A stretch of DNA of 64,000 nucleotides from Macrostomum lignano (lineage: Eukaryota), in assembly GCA_002269645.1 (NCBI GenBank), contig NIVC01002550.1, positions 38,119-102,118 of the forward strand, read 5' to 3'. Of the stretch, positions 3,900 through 64,000 are shown in pieces (within the stretch, counting starts at the first letter, position 1; the number at the start of each line of letters is the position of its first letter). The notes under the pieces are model-generated. The model did no database searches. It saw nothing but the letters and a program-made list of their open reading frames with translations, and was not told where the DNA came from. Made by a program: the position numbers and the translations under genes.

Positions 3900-6800
3900 T
3901 CAGACAGGCACCCCTCTGGTCCGCAGGTACTCCCTAGCCTTGGCGTGCTCCCGCACGTCCCACACCTGAAATCCGGTCAACCCAGTAATCCCCAGCACGC
4001 ACTGACAGTCAGGGTTCACTGTCAATTTAGTCACCTCGCCGATGTTCCAATTTCTATTAGCCAAGGACTTCCATTCGCCGTCGGGATTGGAGCGCCACAG
4101 TCTGACAAGGCCGTCAGCCCCGCCGGTGCAGAGAAGGCCGGAATCGGTCAGGCAGAGGCCGCTGCAGGCTCCGTCGTGAGCAGTCAGGGTGGACACGGGG
4201 GCGCCGGGGGCTCGGGCGTCGCAGCGCTGCACGGAGCCACGCTCGGTAGAGGCCATCAGGAAGAACGGATTCCGGCTGTCCCAGACTAGGCGCTCGCATT
4301 CGCCGTCAAGACGCCACGATGGGGCGGAGCCGGCGGCTGGCGCTGATGAGGCTGAAGATGCTGACTGTTGCTGTTGTTGTTGAGGGGCTCGACAGTCTGA
4401 CAGACGAACTGTTGAGTCGTAGCCGCCAGTGAGCAATAGGTGAGGCTCCTGTCAAATTTATTACTAGAGATTATTATTTCAGCGGTTATTTTGCCTACTA
4501 ACAAGTAGCGAGATTAGAATATATGAAATCGATTAACTTGTTAGTGTACGTAATTCATGGGGTTGTCTTGAGGGCGATTCTTGGGGTTGTCTGGAGGGAG
4601 ATTCTTGGGTTGTCTTGAGGGCGATTCTTGGGGTTGTCTGGAGGGAGATTCTTGGGTTGTCTTGAGGGCGATTCTTGGGGTTGTCTGGAGGGAGATTCTT
4701 GGGGTTGACTTGAGGGGCGATTTTTGGGGTTGTCTTGAGGGGCGATTCTTGGGGTTGTCTTGAGGGGCGATTTTTGGGGTTGTCTTGAGGGGCGATTCTT
4801 GGGGTTGACTTGAGGGGCGATTTTTGGGGTTGTCTTGAGGGGCGATTTTTGGGGTTGTCTTGAGGGGCGATTCTTGGGGTTGTCTTGAGGGGCGATTCTT
4901 GGGGTTGTCTTGAGGGGCGATTCTTGGGGTTGTCTTGAGGGCGATTCTTGGGGTTGTCTTGAGGGCGATTCTTGGGGTTGTCTTGAGGGGCGATTCTTGG
5001 GTTTGACTTGAGGGCGATTTTTGGGGTTGTCTTGAAGGGCGATTCTTGGGGTTGTCTTGAGGGGCGATTCTTGGGTTTGTCTTCAAGGCGATTCTCGCTA
5101 TGCTATCTCACAGCCGAGCTGCATTACCTGCGGGTGCCAGGCCAGGCACTGCACCTTGTCAGAGTGCAGCTTGTCCAGCATCCTGACGCAACGCTTAGCG
5201 TCCAGATCCCACAGGCCCACAGATTTGTCGGCGCTGGCGCTGGCCAGAGCCTGGGGGGAGCGCGGATTCCAGGAAACGTCCAACACAGCGTCTTTGTGAC
5301 CTGAGGATAGCGGATAGTATATATTCAATAGAGTTCCAATTCGGAACTGAAGGCAAACGCAAACAAGAATCAAGTCGCCAGCCTTACCGACCGTCGAGAT
5401 AATCAACGATTCTGATACTCAATGTACACCCCTGTGCGCCAATCAGCACTTCGCCTCAGTGCAGCCTTGCCAAGCATCCAAATTTTATCAGCACAAAGCC
5501 GGAGCTTCTGGACCTTCAACAGGTCGCACCAGGTGACCAAATCTCGAACAGTGGGCAAACTTCAACTGCTGGACATCCTTAACGAATCTCTCAAGCATTC
5601 CACCATACCCCCTTCGTTAATTCCAGGCTGAAGACACGCTCACACAGGGTGCACAACGGCCCTAATTGACGGTCTAATCGTCAAGCATGTACACTCTCTG
5701 TACATAAAAAGTGCACACTTGCCTTCCAACTGCACAGACGGCAGCAGAGCCTCGATCAAGTCCAGATCCCACAGCTGAATGGACTGCTCCATTCTGCCAA
5801 TAGCCAGCAGGTGACCGCCCCTGCCAACAAATTCGAAGCACAGCGGCATCGAGTCCAAATAGAAGCACCTGTGCTCGTAGAACTGCTTATTAGGCTCATT
5901 GTAAACGTGTATTTGAGCCTCTGAGATGCCCTGGTTCTGCTGCACCTGGGCAACGACAACCAGATTGTCTGTTGGCACCAGCTTGGAGTCCTCGTCTTCG
6001 TCGTCCTCCTCGTCGTCTGTGCCGTCATCAGCCGCGTCTGCATCAGCCGGCTGGATGTCGTCAATGTCTTCGGCATCGTCGTCTGGCGCCTCGTTCTCAG
6101 CGTCGCCGCCAGCGTCAGCGTCCATGACCTCGCCGCCTGACTGTCCTGCGGCAGCGGCTCTGGCAGCTTGGCTAAATTTACAGAGAAGTAGCTTTGTTTG
6201 AGTTGGTTGTAGACAACTGCTCACAGCTCTTTGAGAATTCTTCATTGAACTGTTGATAACCATGATTGGATATTCTGTCTGCCCCTCCCCTCAGACCCTT
6301 CAGTGCCTGCTGCCCCTCCCCTCAGACCCTTCAGTGCCTGCTGCCCCTCCCCTCAGACCCTTCAGTGCCTGCTGCCCCTCCCCTCAGATCCTTCAGTGCC
6401 TGCTGCCCCTCCCCTCAGATCCTTCAGTGCCTGCTGCCCCTCCCCTCAGATCCTTCAGTGCCTGCTGCCCCTCCCCTCAGATCCTTCAGTGCCTGCTGCC
6501 CCTCCCCTCAGACCCTTCAGTGCCTGCTGCCCCTCCCCTCAGACCCTTCAGTGCCTGCTGCCCCTCCCCTCAGATCCTTCAGTGCCTGCTGCCCCTCCCC
6601 TCAGATCCTTCAGTGCCTGCTGCCCCTCCCCTCAGATCCCTCAGTGCCTGCTGCCCCTCCCCTCAGACCCTTCAGTGCCTGCTGCCCCTCCCCTTAGACC
6701 CTTCAGTGCCTGCTGCCCCTCCCCTCAGATCCTTCAGTGCCTGCTGCCCTCCCCTCAGACCCTTCAGTGCCTGCTGCCCCTCCCCTCAGACCCTTCAGTG

Positions 6801-9250
6801 CCTGCTGCCCCTCCCCTTAGACCCTTCAGTGCCTGCTGCCCCTCCCCTCAGATCCTTCAGTGCCTGCTGCCCTCCCCTCAGACCCTTCAGTGCCTGCTGC
6901 CCCTCCCCTCAGATCCCTCAGTGCCTGCTGCCCCTCCCCTCAGATCCTTCAGTGCCTGCTGCCCCTCCCCTCAGATCCTTCAGTGGCTGCTGCCCCTCCC
7001 CTCAGATCCTTCAGTGGCTGCTGCCCCTCCCCTCAGATCCTTCAGTGGCTGCTGCCCCTCCCCTCAGATCCTTCAGTGGCAGCTGCCCCCCCCCTCAGAT
7101 CTTTTAGTGGGTGCTATAGCCCCATTATATAGCCTGTATATGAGTGGGCACCATTACCTTTACCCTAATCTTAGCAGTTTATATTTAGAATATTGATTTG
7201 CAAAGTCAAGTTAAAGCTATTAAGACTTACAGATCTCGTCTTGCTTTGGCAGCCTCATCATTTAATAACTGAGCATAGTTTTCATCTTTGTCTGCCTAAA
7301 ATTAATGAAAAGATTGTTTTCTTAAAGTTCTAACAAAGTTAAGTTAATGAGACCAAATAAATTAATAGATAATTTTGAAAGACTAACATTCTAGTTAATT
7401 AAAGGTATTAAGTTACTATTAACATTTATCATTTAGGACTAGGTTTATTTGAACTAGCAATAAAGCTGAAAGTGAATACAATCTATTTGTGTAACTGAAT
7501 CAATAACTATGTACCTAATTTTATATATAGTTAATCTAGATAGTTTTTACACAATTAAAACAATTGGCTTGCATTTGTAATGCATAGCAAAAGAGCTAGC
7601 AATTCAATTAGCAAAAAGTTAAAAATATAAAAGCCAGCAAGCAAGCTTTTTTAAATTCTACCTACTAAAACTCAATGTCTATAACCAAAACATAGAGGCC
7701 TAGAAGGAATAAAAATTGGTTTCACTTTAGATACCACCATTTGCATTCTACATGCCATATTGTAGATTATATTATATATATTTGGCTATCAAGTAATATA
7801 TATAGAATGCTAGAATAGTATGCCAATCAAGTGTTTTATTAAATTGTATGAGTATACCAATTAAAATTTTATGACTAACAAACACAGAAAAAATGCAATA
7901 AGCAATAGACACTATAAGTAATTCCTGCAAAACATGAAACCTATATCATTAAAAAATAGAAATAATTAATAGAACAAAAGTTTTTATATATATTATAACA
8001 TTGATTTAGGTTCATTTTTTATTAGTAACAATAGAAAATTTTTGTGTATTATTTGAAAACTTAATTTATTGTCATCTTTTGAAATTAACTTTAATAGGTC
8101 TTTAGCAAAGGATTGCTTAGGCTTAGCATAATTTATTTATATAATATAATAATACATTCTTTATGCTTTTTTTTGCATTGCACTGCAAGCTTAAACAAGT
8201 TTGGTTAAGAACTTTAAGCCAATAATGGTGCCAGAAAGTTGCATTTTCTTCTTGTAAACCCAATGTACATGAGCCAAACTAAAGCATTTGTTCAATTGTT
8301 TGCTAGATGTACACCAGTAAAGCATTTGTATGCCATAATTTTTTGGCCAATATTTTCTGCAATGGCAGTGCTTATTTTCTGCTTATCCGCACGGCACACT
8401 GACGAGATAAGTCAATAAAGTGAATAAAGTGAATAAAGAGAATAAAGCGAATAAAGCAAATTGTTAAAGCAATGCAATAATCGATACAAACAAAATTGCG
8501 AATTCACATGAGTAGTAAAATTCTACGGAAGCGGCAATGGACTATATAAATCACAGCGAGATCAGATTAGACTTTGCTAAAAATTTAAATAATAAACAAT
8601 TCTTAGAGTAAATTTAATTTAAATCATTTGTTACTACACAAAAAAATTCTTTCTCATAGAAAATTCGTTAAATCTTTATTTCTTTAGAACAACTGTTCAA
8701 GCCAAGTTATGTTGTTATACTGCACTCAAATCGTATGTACTAAACTTCCCACACATCTTATGTAGAAGATAGGGCAGCTATCTCGTCAGTGTGCCATGCG
8801 GATAAGCAGAAAATTATTCGCATGGTACCGTTGGAATAAGACAAATTATTCCTACGGTACCATGGGGATAAGCACTGCCTTCTGCAATATGCGGTCTACA
8901 TGTATATTTGATAATTGATATTCTCTAAAACTATCATCTTGACAAATCTAACTTTATTTTTTTTCTTTTTTATGCTGCAGTTGGCATCATTTGGGCCAGT
9001 TTTTTATTGGGGCATATTCTTTATTTGCCATTTGGTCTTAAGTTAACATGAATCATGAGAGGAATATTTTATAAATATAAAATTACTTAGAATATAAGCT
9101 CATCACGATCTGGAATATTGTATTTTAAGCCTAAAAATATACTTTATGAACTGTGTGTCAATGTATAGGAAAACTTACATGGCGTGGTACAATATCAAAG
9201 CATCCTTGAGGCACCCAACAATGGGTTGGATAAAACTTTCGCTGAGACAT
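3900..9250 (-). CDS. PWP1: Periodic tryptophan protein 1 homolog (WD40 ribosome-biogenesis factor)
   Basis: Exons (minus): 9250-9179 (MSQRKFYPTHCWVPQG..., resembles the PWP1 N-terminal WVxxG motif), candidate 23-nt micro-exon 9109-9087, 6171-5723 (acidic tract; VYNEPNKQFYEH...IQLWDLDLIEALLP), 5300-5128 (GHKDAVLDVSWN...LASASADKSVGLWDL...HSDKVQCLAWHP), 4448-3900 (LLTGGYDSTVRLSDCR...). Splice phases are consistent. The intron at 5722-5301 has a GC donor. Confidence 0.9.
4558..5095. repeat. 24-25-bp intronic minisatellite (GGGGTTGTCTTGAGGGGCGATTCTT)
   Basis: Tandem repeats inside PWP1 intron 5127-4449. Confidence 0.95.
6281..7103. repeat. Minisatellite family B, 31-bp unit CCCCTCCCCTCAGATCCTTCAGTGCCTGCTG (copy 1)
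   Basis: Tandem repeats in a PWP1 intron; the same unit occurs at 60.76-61.07 kb and 63.87 kb. Confidence 0.95.
8364..8879. mobile_element. Mutator-like MITE (516 bp, 9-bp TSD)
   Basis: Perfect 9-bp direct repeat TTCTGCAAT at 8355-8363 and 8880-8888. Ends are GGCAGTGCTTAT...ATAAGCACTGCC, plus an inner ~35-bp inverted repeat (TTTTCTGCTTATCCGCACGGCACACTGACGAGATA). There is an internal AATAAAGTG x5 repeat and no ORF. A 9-bp TSD with G-starting TIRs fits MULEs. Confidence 0.8.
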
Positions 9251-24595: not shown

Positions 24596-25123
24596 ATTTC
24601 TTTCATTGATTGCGGCCCTATTTCATGGAAATTAATATCTTCGTGGGCACCAGCATCAGAGGCACTTACGATCCGTATTAAAATATACTTATCCAGGAAT
24701 AAAATACATGGAACTAAGTTTGTTGGTAAAAACAATCGCCGAAGTTGACATTTATTTGGGCAATTGGTTTAATTTCGCTACCCGATCAAAAAGATGTGGT
24801 TTAACATCGACGTAGCATAGCTTTGATTTGAATAATAGTTCTAAACTATTGATCGAATTCCATCATTAGTTATTTGATAAAAACCTAATCGAGATTTTAA
24901 CGCACATCTTTGGTATTAAAAAGCACAACGCCTAAAAGTTTGAATAGAGAAATATTTTTTAAATAAATCGCTGATTCAATATTAAAAAACATGGTTGGTT
25001 ATTACAGGTAGTTTGGGTGTCTTACAAAATTTTAAAATATTGTATAAATATTAGAATGTTCCAATCATTCCGCGCCAGTCTGTCAGTCTGGAGTGCCGGA
25101 TGTTCAAGTCCATGGCGAATGGC

Positions 25124-26773
<1,650 letters not shown>

Positions 26774-31606: not shown

Positions 31607-33046
<1,440 letters not shown>

Positions 33047-34314
33047 GCCATTCGCCTTCCTCGATGAAGCTTAGATGACTTTGAAAAATTGAACATAAAT
33101 TTGTGGACAATTTCTCAATACTATTGATTGAATTGTTAACATCAACGCGATGGCTGTTTAATATCGTTTTGAGTCGAGATAATTAAACTTGTAAAACAAT
33201 ATTGGCTAAGCACAGGTCAACGAAATATAAATAGAATGCCTTTTTTAAATACTTGAACTGAAAAGTTCGTAATTTGAGTTCTCTTTAAATCCAGTGCTTT
33301 TGTTTTCTACTTTATGACTTCTTAACTCGAGATGTATGTACAATGCGTATGAATGAGATCTCGAAGATATTGAACGATGTGGAGTAATGCATTTATTATG
33401 CTTGATTGTGCGCCAGAGCCAAAGCTGTTCTTAGTGAAATCTTCGAAGGCCAGCAAAATTTGCTACGGAACCGCTAATCTGAGGGTCAACTATGCAGCCG
33501 CATTATAGTTACACACAGGGTATAAAATTAGAAATTCAAATCGAACGGTTTTCCTTGCTAATAACAACAACAGGATATGCTAAACAGCATAAACTGACAA
33601 GTGAACCTTCGGAATGTATTTAAGGATAGATATTAAGCATCTAATTTAGTTGAAATTAACACGATAGACTCGCCAAAAACTTGGACAGAACATTTCTATG
33701 GTCAGGTTTCTGACAAAGCTACAATACTTTGTATTCAGGGTTGATGCTGCATCCTGCAAGATAGCTCGTAGCATGCAATGGGAAGATGACGCACTTCAAA
33801 AATCTTTCCATTGCTCAATTCAAATCAAATTGTTAAGCAAAATAATAAAGATCTGATGGGTTGTATTAGTTGTGTTATTTAGTGCAGAGTAGCATTGAAC
33901 GCATGACTCACAACAAGCTTACGTTTGTATAGATAAAAATTATAACTGTAGCTGATTGTCACAACACACTACTGCGTTCACAAATACAAGTAGCGTAGTT
34001 AGAATTTTTAACTAAGAACTTGCAGTGGTTTGAAGAAAATGAATAAAATGAATACCGCTAATGTGTATAATGTTGTATTAATAAGAAGGGACTCGACTAT
34101 GTGCGGACGACGAGCGTACGAGTATTTTTATATCAGTTTAAGCGCATAGATCCAATATTTTTGTAACACAGTTACAAAATAGTATATATCATTCCAAAAC
34201 AAACCCCACAACGGCAATGCATGCTGTGTGCAGATGCTAAAAGTTTTCTGCTGTTTGGATGATCTTCTCTCTTAATGAACAGTTTGTTGTTTCAGTGATT
34301 TGTATATCTGAGAG

Positions 34315-54860: not shown

Positions 54861-55019
54861 GCAATTACCCTAAGAGCCAGAGCATTTTTGCAATGGCCCT
54901 CATACGCCACAAATCCATATACTAAAAATCAAACCTGAACTTGTATTTCTAATATAATTTCTATACAATCACTGACAGCAACTCATATTGATCGATTGAT
55001 GCTAAAATAGACAGCAGCC

Positions 55020-56769
55020 ATGTCGAATTTCTTTGTCAACATCGCCGACAAGTTTGAGGCGATGAGCAATGTTGTAAAGCAGCAGACCACAGGCTCAGGC
55101 GCCGGTGGTAGCAGCAGCGCCAGTTCAACTGGCGTCAACAGTCGCTGCAACGACTGTCGCGGCCAATTCGCCACTCTGTTTCCAAAGCGTCAGCGTTGCG
55201 CAATCTGTCGTTATTATTTCTGTCGTACCTGCGTGGGCAATGTACCAGTGAGTGGCAGAGTGCAGCTGGGCTCCGCTCTGCCACTTCGAGACGCTGTTAG
55301 TAATACGGTTGTGCCAGCCTGCTCTCGTTGTCGGTGTTCTCTAATCCGAATTTCACTTACGAACAATTGATGCGGCTACGAGTTAGGGATCTGTTCTGGT
55401 TTCTGCAGCGGACTGGCACGCAGAATGACGAGCTGCGAGGCTTGAAAGAGAAGAATCAGCTGGCCGATTTGGTGATGGACAGGTTCGGCAATGTCGAGTA
55501 CCGGCGGGCCCGGGCGGATGAGAGGCGGCACCAGCACGAGAGGCTGGCTCAGATGGCGTCGAATATGGAGCAACTGGCCGGTGGCGCCCAGAGACAGGTT
55601 AGATTGCAGCAGAGATGGTTCAGTAGTTCCCTAATATGGTCATTGGTTAGATTGCAGCAGAGATGGTTCAGCAGTTCCCTATTATGGTGATTGGTTAGAT
55701 TGCAGCAGAGATGGTTCAGCAGTTCCCTAATACGGTTATGAAACAGTATGTATATGGGGTTTCAATCACGCATGCTTTAATCTGATCTGTTTAAACAATC
55801 TTTTTTGGACAGCAACAACAACAAACTGCTTCTACGAGTACAAGTCAGCGTGAAAATCAACATCAACCAGAAGATTCCCATGCTCAACCACCGGAAGCTG
55901 CTCAACCACCGGAAGCTGCTCAACCACCGGAAGCTGCTCAACTACCGGAAGCTGCTCAACCACCGGAAGCTGCTCAACCACCGGAAGCTGCTCAACTACC
56001 GGAAGCTGCTCAACCACCGGAAGCTGCTCAAATACCGGAAGCTGCTCAACTACCGGATGCTGCTCAACCACTGGAAGCTGCTCAACTACCGGATGCTGCT
56101 CAACCACCGGAAGCGATGGAACGGTCGACAGACACCCTGTCGCAGTCGTCCATCCCGAATGTACCGCGCGCCACCGTATCCGGGTTTACCGCCAGAAGCT
56201 GCCGCCGCTGCTGCAGACGAGGATAACAATGCGGCAAATACTGACGATGAGGACATCGAGATGGCTCAGGACGCGGCTGCGGAAGCGGCTGCAGCGGATC
56301 TGCTGGCCGCTATGGAGGCCGCTGAAGTAGCTGCCGCTATTGAAGAAGCGGAAGCGGCCTCCTCCTCAGCAGCAGCCGCCGCCCCTGCCGCTCCCGCAGC
56401 GTCGTCTCACTCGGAGGTGACCAGTCTGGATCAAGTTGCCAACGAATCGGATTTGGATAAGCTAAGCGTTCGCGAGATTAAACAACTGCTAGTGCGCAAC
56501 TTTGTTGACTATCGCGGCTGTTTAGAACGGCTGAACTGCTGGAGCGACTGCGCAGGCTGTACAGAGAGCATGCCGTGTCTAAACAGGCTGTCCTGCATGA
56601 CGAATTGGCCGACTCTGACCTGTGCAAGATCTGCATGGACGCGGCCATAGACTGTGTGCTGCTGGAGTGCGGCCACATGGTCACCTGTGTGCAGTGCGGC
56701 AAACAGTGCTCGGACTGTCCCGTGTGCCGGCAGTACGTTGTAAGGGTTGTGCGAACTTTTAAGTCTTGA
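55020..56769 (+). CDS. RNF34: RNF34/RFFL (CARP)-like FYVE-RING E3 ubiquitin ligase; three apparent frameshifts
   Basis: FYVE-like CNDC...CAICRYYFCRTC...CSRC; QLMRLRVRDL SAP-like motif; LSVREIKQLLVRNFVDYRGC; RING CKICMDAAIDCVLLECGHMVTCVQCGKQCSDCPVCRQYVVRVVRTFKS*. Exons 55020-55597 and 55813-56769. The frame breaks at ~55333, ~56168 and ~56529, so this is either assembly error or a young pseudogene. Confidence 0.85.
55597..55735. repeat. 48-bp x3 repeat spanning the RNF34 exon-1 donor
   Basis: Unit GGTTAGATTGCAGCAGAGATGGTTCAGTAGTTCCCTAATATGGTCATT. Confidence 0.85.
55870..56115 (+). repeat. Coding 18-bp repeat (AQPPEA x ~13) within RNF34
   Basis: GCTCAACCACCGGAAGCT repeated in the phase-0 frame that follows the acceptor at 55812. 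Confidence 0.85.
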
Positions 56770-58638: not shown

Positions 58639-60494
58639 ATGCCGCAGTCAAATCGTTATTACGACCTGAACCTGCTGGACAGGCAGGAGGCCATGGTGGC
58701 TCGTAGCCAAAATCTCGGCTATTCGCACCTGGCATTCGCTTCGGTGCACACCAACATCAAAGTTCCACCGCCGCCGCCCTCACCTCTGCCAACAGCGGCT
58801 GGATCTTCTGGTTCCGGTAGGCTATGGCGAATGAGTATATCAGAGAGCATATCGAAGGTCCTAGTGGTGAAGCTTTAGTGCTGTTGAACTTTGTTTTAAA
58901 GGGTACGGATATTTTTTATAATGAAGATAAAATTGAAGTTAAGTTCAGTGAGTCAAAGTTCCTGAGGTGTGAAGTTAGGTGACTCAAACTTCCTGAGGTG
59001 TGAAGTTAGGTGACTCAAAGTTCCTGAGATGTGAAGTTCAGTGACTCAAAGTTCCTCAGGTGTGGAGTTCAGGGACTCAAATTTCCTCAGGTGTGGAGTT
59101 CAGGGACTCAAATTTCCTCAGGTGTGAAGTTCAGGGACTCAAAGTTCCTCAGGTGTGGAGTTCAGGGACTCAAAGTTCCTCAGGTGTGGAGTTCAGGGAC
59201 TCAAAGTTCCTGAGGTGTAAAGTTTAGTGACTCAAATTTCCTGAGGTGTGAAGTTCAGTGACTCAAAGTTTCTGAGGTGTGAAGTTCAGTGACTCAAATT
59301 TGCAAGAATGCGCAGTGACAGATATTTAAACTTCAAAGCATATTTTCTCCATCAACCACTCCGACTCCAGGCTCTGTGTGGTCCCGCACGGGAAGTCGCG
59401 TATGCCGTCTCACCCTAGCTTTCGGGCCGGAAGTTCAAGAAACCGAGCTGAAGTCCTATTTCCGTCAGCACGCCAAAGAACTGGAGGCCTACGATCTGTT
59501 AGCCGTGCTGCCTAAGAGCCAATCGGCTCTGCACGCCTGCGCAGAGACTCTGCCTGTGGATCTCATCGCTTGCGATCTGGGCTCGCCTAAGTTGGAGACA
59601 TTCTGGTCAGATTTTCGCGACATTCGAACAGCAGTTAGGCGAGGTATTAAGATTGAGGTTAGTTGCGACGCCGGATCATCCGGACACTTGAGAGTGTGGA
59701 GTTGCTATAGGCAGGCTGACAGGCCGACTTAAGCTACTGACAGATAGATATTTAGGTATCTAGAGACACAGACACTAACTCAGACAGACAGACAAATAGA
59801 CAGATAGGTATACAAACAAACACTAAGACAGACATGGAGACATGGACAGGTGGCAGACAGACAGAGACATACAGACAGGCAGGCAGACAGACAGACAGAC
59901 ATACAGACAGACAGACAGACACTAAGACAGACAGACAGACAGACAGACAGACAGCCAAGGCCACCAATCAGAGCCTGTGCCACCCGCCCATCCCCGCAGG
60001 TGTCCCTGCAGCCCATGCTGCACTCGCAGCAGAGCCGCATCCTGGCGGCCACCCTGCTGTTCGAGCTGCTGACCTCGGCCAGGCTGTCCCCAGACGGGCT
60101 GGTGCTCAGCTCGGGCGCTCTCAACCAGTGGGATCTGCGCGACCCGTTCGGTGTCTGCGCCCTGGCCGCGTCGCTAGGCGTGCCGCCAGACAAGACCAGA
60201 GCCTGCCTGTCAGCCAATTGTGAGTCAGCAGTTGAGCACGCGCTAGTCAGACGTAAGACTGCTCACGGCGCCCTGGCTATTGCTCAGATTGCTAAGCTGC
60301 CGGGCGTGAGCAGCGTGCAGCTGGCAGATTCGGATTCTAAGAGATCGTCGGGTAGGAAGCGACCAGCCGCCGAGGAAGCTCAAGTAGATGACGGCATGAC
60401 CGACTTGACGGAGCAGCAGGACCGCCTTATCGACCTGCTGTTGCCGGCAAGACCAAAGAAGAAAAAGAAAAGCGGAGCTGTTGTTCGAATATAG
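58639..60494 (+). CDS. RPP30: Ribonuclease P/MRP protein subunit p30 (319 aa)
   Basis: Exons 58639-58816 (YYDLNL...NLGYSHLA), 59371-59657 (RLTLAF...YDLLAVLPKSQSALHACAETLPVDLI...AVRRGIKIE), 60000-60494 (LVLSSGALNQWDLRDPFGV...KKKKK). Phases are consistent. Confidence 0.9.
58935..59300. repeat. 31-bp intronic minisatellite (GAAGTTCAGGGACTCAAAGTTCCTCAGGTGT)
   Basis: Tandem repeats in RPP30 intron 1. Confidence 0.92.
59740..59955. repeat. (CAGA)n microsatellite-rich tract in RPP30 intron 2
   Basis: Direct tetranucleotide runs. Confidence 0.9.
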
Positions 60495-60761
60495 GGAATG
60501 CCGTGCTACTAAAAGTAGGCAAAGTTTAAATTTTGGTGGGATTTGTTCCTGTGCCAAAACAACAAGTTGTAAAATTGTAACTTTAACAACTTAATAATGA
60601 TTTGCTTGTATTTTTGAAGTATAACCGTTGCTAATTTAGTCTGAACTATGCATTTGTTCCTTTGCGGCCTGTTATTGACTGTGATGAGTCAGTCTTGTTA
60701 CTTATTTTATTTCACTTTTTCCGTTTAGCATTGCTTAAGCTAGGGGAGGTCTTTCCTAACC

Positions 60762-61066
60762 CCTCAGATCATTCAGTGCCTGCTGCCCCTCCCCTCAGAT
60801 CCTTCAGTGCCTGCTGCCCCTCCCCTCAGATCCTTCAGTGGCTGCTGCCCCTCCCCTCAGATCCTTCAGTGCCTGCTGCCCCTCCCCTCAGATCCTTCAG
60901 TGGCTGCTGCCCCTCCCTCAGATCCTTCAGTGGCTGCTGCCCCCCTCCCTCAGATCTTTCAGTGGCTGCTGCCCCTCCCTTCAGATTCTTCAGTGCCTGC
61001 TGCCCCTCCCCTCAGATCCTTCAGTGCCTGCTGCCCCTCCCCTCAGATCCTTCAGTGGCTGCTGCC
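60762..61066. repeat. Minisatellite family B (31 bp), copy 2, left part; resumes at 63868-63899
   Basis: Same unit as 6281-7103; interrupted by the Polinton-derived insertion. Confidence 0.9.
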
Positions 61067-61271
61067 AGTAGTAATAGAAAATTACGTCCATACCCATTTT
61101 TTTCAATTGCAAAACACGTAATAAGGTAACCCGTCAGAAATTTTATTCCGCACATACCTTTATTTTCCTATAAAATCAAGTAGTAAGATACCGAACCAAA
61201 TGGTAGGGTATACAACAGGAATTCTAACTACACTGCACCGCACCCACAAATAATTCAAAAGAAGAAAAGAT

Positions 61272-61889
61272 CTAAATTTCGATCAACCAACCAACTTGTC
61301 CAAAAACGCACTTTCCGTATATTTCTGCATTACAAGAACAGAGGCAACTAATGTGCTGTAAAGCGTCGTAGGCAAAAATACACGCGCCGAAATTCATTTC
61401 TTCGACGAGGCTCACAACCGTTAAAAAGAAGCGAAGGCTACCACCACGAGTCAGTTTGAAATACAAACAAAACAACACCCAAATACCACAATGTCCAGAC
61501 CGAGGATCCTGAATAGCAAATCGGCTGTAGGACCAATTTTGAAAATCCCCACATTCTCGCCCCAACCACCGTCTAATATTTTCCGGCGGATTTAAACCAA
61601 GCGAATCAAAATATTCCCCGACCCTTCGTCCACGGCCCCCCCCCCTAACCCGCCTGCTACTCACCCAAACTGCAACCCAATGCCTACCAGGAAGATTCGA
61701 AGTGTCTGTATTCGCCACAAAGAAATAGTCTTTACCATCTAAAGGTAATTGTCCAAGAGTTCTAATCGAGTCCTGAGGATACACACCCAAAAAGACAACA
61801 CCAAACAATCTCATACATAGAATTGTAATAATTGACCGCAAGAATCTGTCACTGGCACTCTGCAACATGTTCAGATTCACTTCCTCCAT
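61272..61889 (-). CDS. Polinton/adenovirus-type cysteine protease (adenain family), 205 aa, intact
   Basis: FLGVYPQD...VANTDTSNLPGRHWVAVW...EYFDSLG...IQDPRSGHCGIWVLFCL carries the His-Asp-(Gln)-Cys catalytic set in adenain order. Intronless; ATG at 61889. Confidence 0.88.
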   Translation of the reverse strand: MEEVNLNMLQSASDRFLRSIITILCMRLFGVVFLGVYPQDSIRTLGQLPLDGKDYFFVANTDTSNLPGRHWVAVWVSSRRVRGGGRGRRVGEYFDSLGLNPPENIRRWLGRECGDFQNWSYSRFAIQDPRSGHCGIWVLFCLYFKLTRGGSLRFFLTVVSLVEEMNFGACIFAYDALQHISCLCSCNAEIYGKCVFGQVGWLIEI

Positions 61890-62600
61890 GCTGTGCCGGC
61901 ACGACGTCGCGAAGCTCCGTGATCTGCAGCTGCTTGTCAAATAGACCACCGAATATTACATTGTAGACAACGCGCTTGTTGCTTGAGCGAAGCGCAACTC
62001 CAACTTTACATTTCCTTCCTTATAGAGCTGAGCACCATGCACGTTACGTCTACGCAAAAAAGCGAGAAAAGATTCAAAGCCACCTACCATGTCTTTTTAG
62101 CGGTCTGTCTCGGACAACATACTCCGCCTCCGCAGAACTACCCTCTTCGAAAAGAGTTTTTACAAGAGCGTCGTATCTCCTTTTGAATGCCTTCAGAAGC
62201 CGATTTTTGGTGCTTCCTCAACACCAACTCTCGAACAGGACCGCTACTTGGCCCATTTTGCAGTATTCGCCGAGAATTTTCTAGTCTTGTCTTTACACTA
62301 GCATTGCATTCACTACGAATATGGACAAATCCGCCCGAAAGAAAGAACTAGCTGAGCGATATGTGAGAGACGGTAAGCAATTATTGGGCTTTTTGTTTAT
62401 TAAGAAGCTGATCGGGTAGTAATGGGCTGCGTCTTCTCTCTTTGCAGCGTTCAAGAACGGGGTCTTTGCGCGGCCGCCTCCGGGTTATATGTACCCCGAG
62501 AATGTCGCGGTTGCGAGGGCGAATATGCCTTGGCAGTGCAAGCCCTAGGTACTGGGTGGTACCGCTTTTTCTTCGGGAGATGAAGTCTGGAAAACTGACG
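61849..62600 (-). pseudogene. Frameshifted remnant of the Polinton major capsid protein (PY) C-terminal half
   Basis: Successive minus-strand frames give ...AHYYPIS..., LFCVDVT, GNVKLELRFAQ and IFGGLFDKQLQITELRDVV, resembling from memory the Polinton MCP C-terminus (YP; FAFDLT; GNVRLEVRFA; IVYAEFDNLLEID..RNV). The core match is 61900-62075; the upstream part is weaker. Confidence 0.5.
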
Positions 62601-64000
62601 ACTATGGACTATTGGGACTTGACTGCGGACGCCTGACTGCGCAATGGAACGATACTGATATGTAGTTGTTCGTATATAATTTGGTAATATTAATGTCTAC
62701 TTAGTATTGTAATAATCCACTATTCATTAGGGAATTTAAAGTTATTTAAAAGACGGTCATATCGCAATTTTGCGTTCGTTTGCCTTAGTTTACCATAAAG
62801 AATTTAACATCATGATACTAAAACTGTATCCGATCTGTTCAAATATATAGAATAAGACAAGTCAAGTCGATTCGACCCTAAGACTGTTTCTCACTACGAA
62901 GGTTCAATTTATTATTGTGCATGGCCGTCAGTACCGAGCTCAGAAGGATCTCGTCACAGCAACACTTACAATTACCCGGTTTTTTCGGATGTGATTGGTT
63001 TGTAGATCAGTGACTGAGAATTGAAAACAGATTATGTCTTTTGGCGTGTTATACTTTAGTCCGTTAAATTCAAGTATACTTAGTTTTTTGAGCAAGTGAT
63101 AGTACAACGAACAGGAACGTTGGCGAAGAACTGCAGAAATGAACAGGTTGGACAACGAAAAAATGATATTGAAGCATTCAATCAAGACAGTTTAGTGGCT
63201 TACGAATGTTAGAAATTCAAAATATGAATGTATACCGAGCCGAATAACTGTTAAGATATTTGGTGGCCTACTACTGTCTTAAACTAACTTTTTGTCCCAT
63301 CTTTGAAGTATGTATATATTTGGCTGGTAAATTTCAAATACGTTTAAAATAAAAAATAGGAGTTTGTATCGTTCGTAATTCTCAATGGTCTTTTCTTGAA
63401 AATTTAAAAATTGGGGTCTTGAATGACTCCTGGTACGAAAGGCAGTATGGGGAGAAAGTATAAGGCGCAGCAGGCGGCTTATTTACTGCCTGTAGCCTAT
63501 TCTGAGCTGGGTTTTGCTTGCAGAGGGATTGTGGCACAATTTCACTTCTGCAATTTATTAAGCTCTTTTCTTTTGTTCTTTGTGGGTGCGTGTTTCCCCT
63601 ATTCTTGTAATGCAGAAATAGCTATGTCGTTTTTCAGCAACTTGGTTGATCGGTGTTGTTGGGGTCTTTCTTTCTCGTTCTTTGTGGCTGCACTGCAGTT
63701 TAGTTGGAATTCCTGTAGAATACCCTACCATTTGGTTCGGTACCTTATTTGATTTTTAATACAAAAATAAGGTATGTGCGTAATAAAATTTCTGACGGGT
63801 ACCTTATTACGTGTTTTGCAATTGAAAAATGGGGTATGGACGTAATTTTCTATTACTACGAGCTACTGCTGCCCCTCCCCTCAGACCCTTCAGTGGCCGC
63901 TATTCTCCTTACTTAATTAATATTTCTACAGTGATAAAAGCCAAATAAATGTGAGCATATCTCGCCATCTCACTGCAGCGCTCAGACCAGGCATCATGAA

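Follow-up and report, generated by a model that had tools for sequence, protein, structure and literature searches.

A short, non-autonomous Polinton derivative in Macrostomum lignano with an adenain-like protease frame and the end of a capsid gene

The window analyzed in this work is a stretch of 64,000 nucleotides from Macrostomum lignano (contig NIVC01002550.1), and near its right end an element of 2,801 bp (61067-63867) holds an open frame for an adenain-like protease together with the tail of the gene encoding the capsid protein MCP. We consider it probable that this element is a non-autonomous deletion derivative of a Polinton (also known as Maverick) that retained the protease gene through its adjacency to a terminal inverted repeat (TIR), and that the gene is now decaying, with a core that is intact by chance and an end that is out of frame.

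Ends, content and surroundings of the element

The element is flanked by an exact 6-bp direct repeat, GCTGCC, which corresponds to the target-site duplication (TSD; plus strand, 61061-61066 and 63868-63873). The left TSD lies within a unit of a 31-bp minisatellite (60760-61066, plus strand, 9.9 copies by repeat finding), the element is inserted at the end of this array, and the minisatellite unit picks up again beyond the right TSD. The left TIR (61067-61349, plus strand) and the right TIR (63591-63867, minus strand) align over 283 columns with 227 identities, 39 mismatches and 9 gap events, and the similarity stops further inward. The left end carries the exact motif AGTAGT, and the right end shows five of the six bases of the mirror motif. 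The right end (63855-63867) has 7 additional outer bases with respect to the left one, and the sibling contigs described below diverge from the window at 63859; the surplus bases possibly arose by slippage on the AGT terminal repeat. According to the available text of PMC8097293, the Maverick signature consists of TIRs, a 6-bp TSD and (AGT)2//(ACT)2 ends, the TIRs range from 46 to 1,447 bp, and the intact vertebrate elements measure 12.7-24.6 kb. The element shows these three features at its ends and its length is only 2.8 kb; therefore, it is a heavily deleted Polinton.

The genes that would make a Polinton or an adintovirus autonomous, that is, those for pPolB, the RVE integrase, the packaging ATPase and the minor capsid protein, were undetected in the element, and 2.8 kb leaves no room for them. 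The internal DNA (62034-63590), which is common to the sibling contigs, is devoid of detectable homology to MCP or other proteins: a Pfam search of the six frames of 62034-63591 gave no match at E<=1, and the 1,085 ORFs of the fetched loci (see below) gave no significant match to the element beyond the protease and the MCP tail. Two further ORF families that recur in these loci gave profiles with negative scores on the element, a 63-codon frame (62296-62484) found no match among longer proteins (30 candidates), and for a plus-strand frame (61970-62284) with an Atlas score of 0.79 no protein homology was detected. An Rfam search of 60500-64000 was also negative.

The window is minisatellite-rich eukaryotic DNA; between positions 1 and 59300, tandem arrays with units of 15-40 bp are abundant between exons, and the repeat finder reported 52 direct-repeat families. 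The 31-bp unit that precedes the element is also present at 6279-7115, 54 kb from the 60760-61066 array, with approximately 94% identity. An RPP30-like gene (Pfam RNase_P_p30, 59322-60494) with a CAGA-microsatellite intron ends about 570 bp before the element, and the protease is antisense to it. Another gene with FYVE and RING domains (Pfam, 55011-56769), which we take to be RNF34/RFFL-like, includes a tract of 6-residue repeats, and its 3' exon apparently changes frame twice, near 56190 and 56530; these switches may be indel errors in the window sequence. An inverted pair of 1,296 bp (25114-26409 and 31761-33056) is 99% complementary, with its members 5.35 kb apart in divergent orientation; each member is a coding exon, presumably beta-tubulin-like as judged by eye from the translation.

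The protease frame and its C-terminal tail

The protease frame is located on the minus strand at 61272-61889, with the ATG at 61889, a second ATG at 61865 and the stop at 61274-61272. A previous reading made from the letters alone (the sequence-only reading) described here a 205-codon open frame with the motifs GxHW, YFDSxG, Q and HCG, and it was found as described: the catalytic residues are H70 (61682-61680, in GRHW), D95 (61607-61605, in YFDSLG), Q127 (61511-61509) and C134 (61490-61488, in HCG). A phmmer search returned 632 representatives at E<=0.001, the best of which, P0002, is 52% identical. In an alignment of 89 rows (the query and 88 homologs picked among the 150 matches listed), D95 is found in 98% of the rows and H70, Q127 and C134 in every one. 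A profile of 87 homologs, from which the query and P0002 were excluded, recognizes a conserved core at 61410-61796 (minus strand) with 122.9 bits (E 1.4e-36), compared with 113.9 bits for the nearest homolog; this core is free of stops, and its frameshift-aware alignment required zero frame changes.

The AF2 model of the ORF has a mean pLDDT of 81.8, and its best fold matches are the human adenovirus protease (E 2.5e-6) and the adenain of a turtle adintovirus (A0A5H3CM23, E 1.6e-8); Atlas features also lead to viral clusters of Peptidase_C5/C48. The Pfam match to Peptidase_C48 is weak (E 0.068, 13.4 bits against a cut-off of 20.7). In a sequence search of the PDB the sole meaningful match was pS273R (E 4.1e-5); the matches in the other seven of the eight rows are low-scoring, align repeat domains to residues 38-69 of the protease, and were dismissed as chance. 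The nearest sequence neighbours are viral-type proteases of 145-210 aa encoded behind an MCP gene. An alignment-based scan of viral contigs gave 38 loci with 23-43% identity, mostly with giant-virus-like neighbours, a scan of viral contigs with the single protein found no relative, and searches with shorter fragments of the protease (6 candidates) gave no match. Polintons encode a vUlp1 protease (available text of PMC11161782), and adintovirus-type virion proteins appear to be restricted to animals (10.1101/697771, accessible part), which, together with the gene set of the window, points to an animal host. As judged from its motifs, its profile score and its predicted fold, the assignment of the ORF as the maturation protease (adenain/vUlp1) of a Polinton/Maverick is not in doubt, as the sequence-only reading had proposed.

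The integrity of the gene is another matter. The homology to the family spans approximately codons 32-160 and ends at 61410, and 71 residues follow the catalytic cysteine, compared with a median of 48 among the homologs. The 48 codons at 61272-61418 (minus strand) form a tail, the last 25 codons of which, not about 35 as previously stated, lie in the TIR. To compare this region with other copies of the element, contigs of four sequencing runs (X1, X7, X12 and X15) were aligned to 61020-63960. Near 61418 an indel that changes the frame with respect to the window accounts for 40.9 of 69.8 of the contig depth in X1, 698.9 of 1182 in X7, 37.9 of 77.2 in X15 and 0 of 11.2 in X12; hence, a frame state different from that of the window has the majority of the depth in two of the four runs and about half in a third. 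In X12 one contig is identical to the window across this region, therefore the frame state of the window is real, and another contig shows a third state. Given that three frame states exist among the copies, at most one of them is the original.

We consider it quite unlikely that the frame of the window is the original one, so that the gene would be whole and the sibling indels derived, and even then its survival would be due to chance. This possibility is consistent with a helix predicted at residues 169-185 (pLDDT ~80), with the presence of tails of at least this length (>=71 residues) in 9 of the 88 homologs, and with the fact that a random tail of 48 codons remains open with a chance of only 4%, which counts against read-through. 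However, the predicted helix follows the alignment supplied to the folding program, and when the three frames were compared with the tail of P0002, that of the window was the worst, scoring below its own shuffles (P 0.97-1.0). The alternative frame scores best in this comparison, but non-significantly (shuffle P 0.15-0.33), and against the tails of the 88 homologs it wins 42 times, loses 37 and ties 9; it terminates 45-51 codons past the catalytic cysteine, at the inner edge of the TIR. In addition, the tail of the window is without the N-D motif of the family (84% and 78% of the homologs), although P0002 also lacks it, and pLDDT falls below 50 at residues 190-205. From the sequence comparisons, the tail is probably an out-of-frame read-through that follows a frame change near codon 157. 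The sequence-only reading considered the protease intact; its frame is indeed open and its core unbroken, yet given the sibling frame differences after codon 157 the gene probably is not. A frame that is open and carries every motif can thus conceal a frameshifted end.

The same reading pointed out that CSCNAEI in the protease tail is mirrored by YSCNAEI in an ORF of 109 codons (63423-63752, plus strand). The mirror is real and is fully explained as a by-product of the TIRs; this ORF overlaps the right TIR, has no Pfam match at E<=1, and is probably spurious.

The capsid remnant, the sibling copies and their decay

The MCP was evaluated with a profile of 51 MCP ORFs obtained from 44 fetched loci. 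On the minus strand at 61897-62033 there is a C-terminal remnant of about 45 codons that corresponds to profile positions 383-427 of 431; its frameshift-aware score was 43.8, in comparison with a mean of 16.0 and a maximum of 21.2 in 30 shuffles, and it was also matched in tblastn by the MCP ORFs of the fetched loci. A complete double jelly-roll MCP is absent, given that only 45 of the 431 profile positions are represented. Five out of five intact MCP genes used as controls scored 420-482 bits after their nearest relatives had been taken out of the profile, whereas the DNA upstream of the remnant scores at shuffle level; therefore, about 90% of the MCP is absent or unrecognisable. The possibility that the rest of a frameshifted MCP lies upstream of 62033 was rejected: the local score there was 16.7, versus a shuffle mean of 17.5, and an anchored extension into this DNA was equalled by 60, 31 and 8 of 60 shuffles, depending on which of three penalty settings was used. 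By eye, a second frame change seemed to be present immediately upstream of 62033, but its score was within the noise.

The sequence-only reading had proposed that the MCP needs at least two or three frameshifts to be read through. Only one frame change can be demonstrated in the detectable part, near 61970, and it is confirmed for the copy of the window by the exact X12 contig and absent from most of the sibling depth. The reading had also placed the MCP next to the protease, with its tail over the protease start. The last MCP frame of the window stops at 61851-61849, beyond the protease ATG, but the extent of this overlap is unreliable: near 61895, immediately ahead of the protease start, all the contig depth in X1, X7 and X12 (three of the four runs) departs from the window by one base, possibly through a mistake in the window sequence. 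Contigs otherwise identical to the window also carry indels within 62449-62754, and near 62734 another one-base mistake of the window sequence is suspected. Indel errors in long reads can inflate the number of frameshifts counted in a neighbouring gene. The Polinton gene order, with MCP directly before the protease, is represented here through the MCP tail (62033-61897). Among 80 metagenome loci examined, 50 hold both genes, and in 49 of them the MCP end is directly upstream of the protease, therefore adjacency and a slight overlap are normal.

Regarding the sibling copies, 175 of 258 contigs in X1 and 304 of 471 in X7 are less than 99% alike to the window, and the long sibling pieces differ from it by approximately 5-14%, internal DNA included. 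The variants cover the ends, the genes and the internal DNA, and none of the contigs reaches from one end of the element to the other. Six X7 contigs run past the terminus into dissimilar sequence (agreement 0.51). Part of this variation may be allelic, or may come from longer elements with the same TIR. In one contig common to X1 and X7, found among the 32 rows listed of 953, the net difference in length between 61482 and 61783 is not a multiple of three; hence, the frame of the protease core is broken in at least one sibling. Contig depth is not copy number, and a depth ratio of 4-6 is only a rough guide. The gap of X12 coverage at 63000-63395, and the absence of the sequence words sought from three runs guessed to be RNA, carry no evidential weight.

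Other contigs were observed that differ in structure. At 61596-62024 there are one or more diverged Polinton relatives of higher depth (one reaches 139 in X1) that match only at the conserved motifs of the protease and the MCP, and from these sequences such a relative may be considered a candidate helper with protease motifs of its own. This relative diverges from the window at 62024, the point where the MCP homology ends, and three runs show a loose end there that is at most 255 letters long. In three runs, one contig each joins the terminus (63859) to the interior (62276), which suggests a nested, tandem or truncated sibling copy.

The premise that the protease and the MCP decayed unequally was examined by comparing the frame-changing differences that have the majority of the depth. 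The MCP tail (144 bp) has two of them and the natural protease span (~540 bp) has one (P 0.114), and when the suspected error near 61895 is removed the comparison is one versus one (P 0.376); in neither case, among the 12 indel rows listed of 105, is the difference in density significant. If each copy diverges by 3-6% and carries 1-3 frame-changing indels per kb, as roughly estimated from the contigs, the chance that a core of 157 codons remains unbroken is 0.07-0.32. Among the 40 substitution rows listed of 321, 16 substitutions fall in codons 1-157, 8 synonymous and 8 nonsynonymous, which in this small, filtered sample gives a crude omega of ~0.3 (P 0.015, or 0.12 with transition bias). The differences in which the window departs from the majority are 4 synonymous and 7 nonsynonymous (11 sites of the filtered list; P 0.22-0.52), which is compatible with neutrality, and those of the minority copies are 4 synonymous and 1 nonsynonymous (P 0.011-0.044, also a small, filtered sample). 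The weak synonymous excess seen in these comparisons would fit past selection, either in the parent virus or during the spread of the family, followed by neutral decay of the copy in the window. The case for unequal decay is weak, and the premise does not hold up well given that the protease tail is probably frameshifted, one sibling is broken in the core, and about 90% of the MCP is missing. Chance survival of the ORF, which the sequence-only reading kept as a fallback, is the better reading.

Origin of the element

In the explanation that we favour, a full-length Polinton would have lost its interior by a deletion after which there remained both TIRs, the protease gene, the ~45 terminal codons of the MCP and approximately 1.55 kb of other DNA. 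Position would account for the retention of the protease: with the MCP directly before it and the TIR next to it, the gene would be kept whenever a deletion leaves the cis-acting end in place. Since the element is without polymerase or integrase, only a helper Polinton would have been able to copy and insert it, in trans, and from what is established for Polintons the 6-bp duplication would be the work of the integrase of this helper; non-autonomous transposon derivatives rely on functions supplied in trans (available text of PMC6431247). Several copies arose that differ from one another and seem to be decaying independently. The catalytic core of the window's copy would have escaped stops and frameshifts by chance, and a frame change near codon 157 likely swapped its natural end for 48 out-of-frame codons that reach the TIR. 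The element would then be an example of a Polinton that shrinks to a TIR-bounded passenger.

It could also be proposed that the element spread as a satellite with a working protease under purifying selection, which aided or interfered in trans with the capsid maturation of a helper Polinton, and that decay began after insertion. We hold this unlikely. All the catalytic residues are retained, the synonymous share among the listed differences (8 of 16 overall, and 4 of 5 among the minority copies) goes in this direction, and the diverged relative of higher depth in the same runs could be the helper; however, these very few substitutions had been filtered beforehand, their synonymous excess may have been passed on by autonomous parents, and a candidate helper with its own protease motifs has no evident need of a supply in trans. 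Moreover, the C-terminal frames of the siblings disagree and the core of one of them is broken. The more elaborate proposal of a 2.8-kb, protease-only family of satellite Polintons, selected while spreading, that helped or sabotaged the capsid maturation of its helper in the manner of a defective-interfering element, with the window's copy recently broken, seems to us more doubtful still; if it were true that the protease was selected while the capsid was lost, the element would represent a protease-only satellite of an animal Polinton.

Host co-option of the window's copy as a deubiquitinase or deSUMOylase, which the sequence-only reading had suggested, is highly improbable, and nothing was found in its support. 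The protease has a clan CE fold, with structures of these enzymes among the lower fold matches, but those at the top of the list belong to viral maturation proteases. The ORF is covered in two runs that are guessed to be RNA, but their contigs extend over the non-coding parts of the element as well as over the coding ones and show neither strand nor level, and the RPP30-like gene upstream runs antisense to the ORF. Furthermore, the gene is still within an element with both TIRs and the TSD, diverged paralogs exist, and the substitutions of the window's own copy look neutral.

Non-autonomous Polintons are TIR-bounded deletion derivatives. Compared by description only, the element resembles them in that it is bounded by TIRs, apparently multi-copy, and presumably reliant on a helper that copies and integrates it, and it differs in that it keeps a recognisable protease gene with all its catalytic residues. 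Such derivatives are mentioned in the literature as Polinton-1N1 (PMC9341505) and in relation to Tlr1 (PMC5499653), both in the accessible parts of these papers. In a literature search that covered titles and abstract openings, with few subscription papers among them, no protease-only Polinton derivative was described.

With the vertebrate Mavericks and adintoviruses, as they are described in the available text of PMC8097293, the element has in common the 6-bp TSD, the (AGT)2-type end, a TIR within the length range, the order of MCP and then protease on one strand, and the adenain fold, as illustrated by the match to the adenain of the Terrapene box turtle (A0A5H3CM23, E 1.6e-8). In contrast with the vertebrate Mavericks of that text, it has 2.8 kb instead of 12.7-24.6 kb, about 45 codons of MCP, a protease that abuts and enters the TIR, and no detectable pPolB, integrase, ATPase or minor capsid gene. 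The same text reports that 96% of the vertebrate Maverick copies are defective.

At the protein level, the clan CE deubiquitinases and deSUMOylases (Ulp1/SENP and bacterial effector DUBs) share the fold clan with the protease and appear among the lower-ranked fold matches, whereas the match to Peptidase_C48 is below the Pfam cut-off and the nearest neighbours are of viral type, located behind MCP. The top structural matches are adenovirus adenain (1nln/1avp, E 2.5e-6) and pS273R of ASFV (6lj9/6ljb, E 1e-5), with which the protease shares the His-Asp/Glu-Cys order and the oxyanion Gln; it differs from them in its identity of 18-28%, in a TM of ~0.47 for the predicted model, and in its C-terminal part, which is probably non-native.
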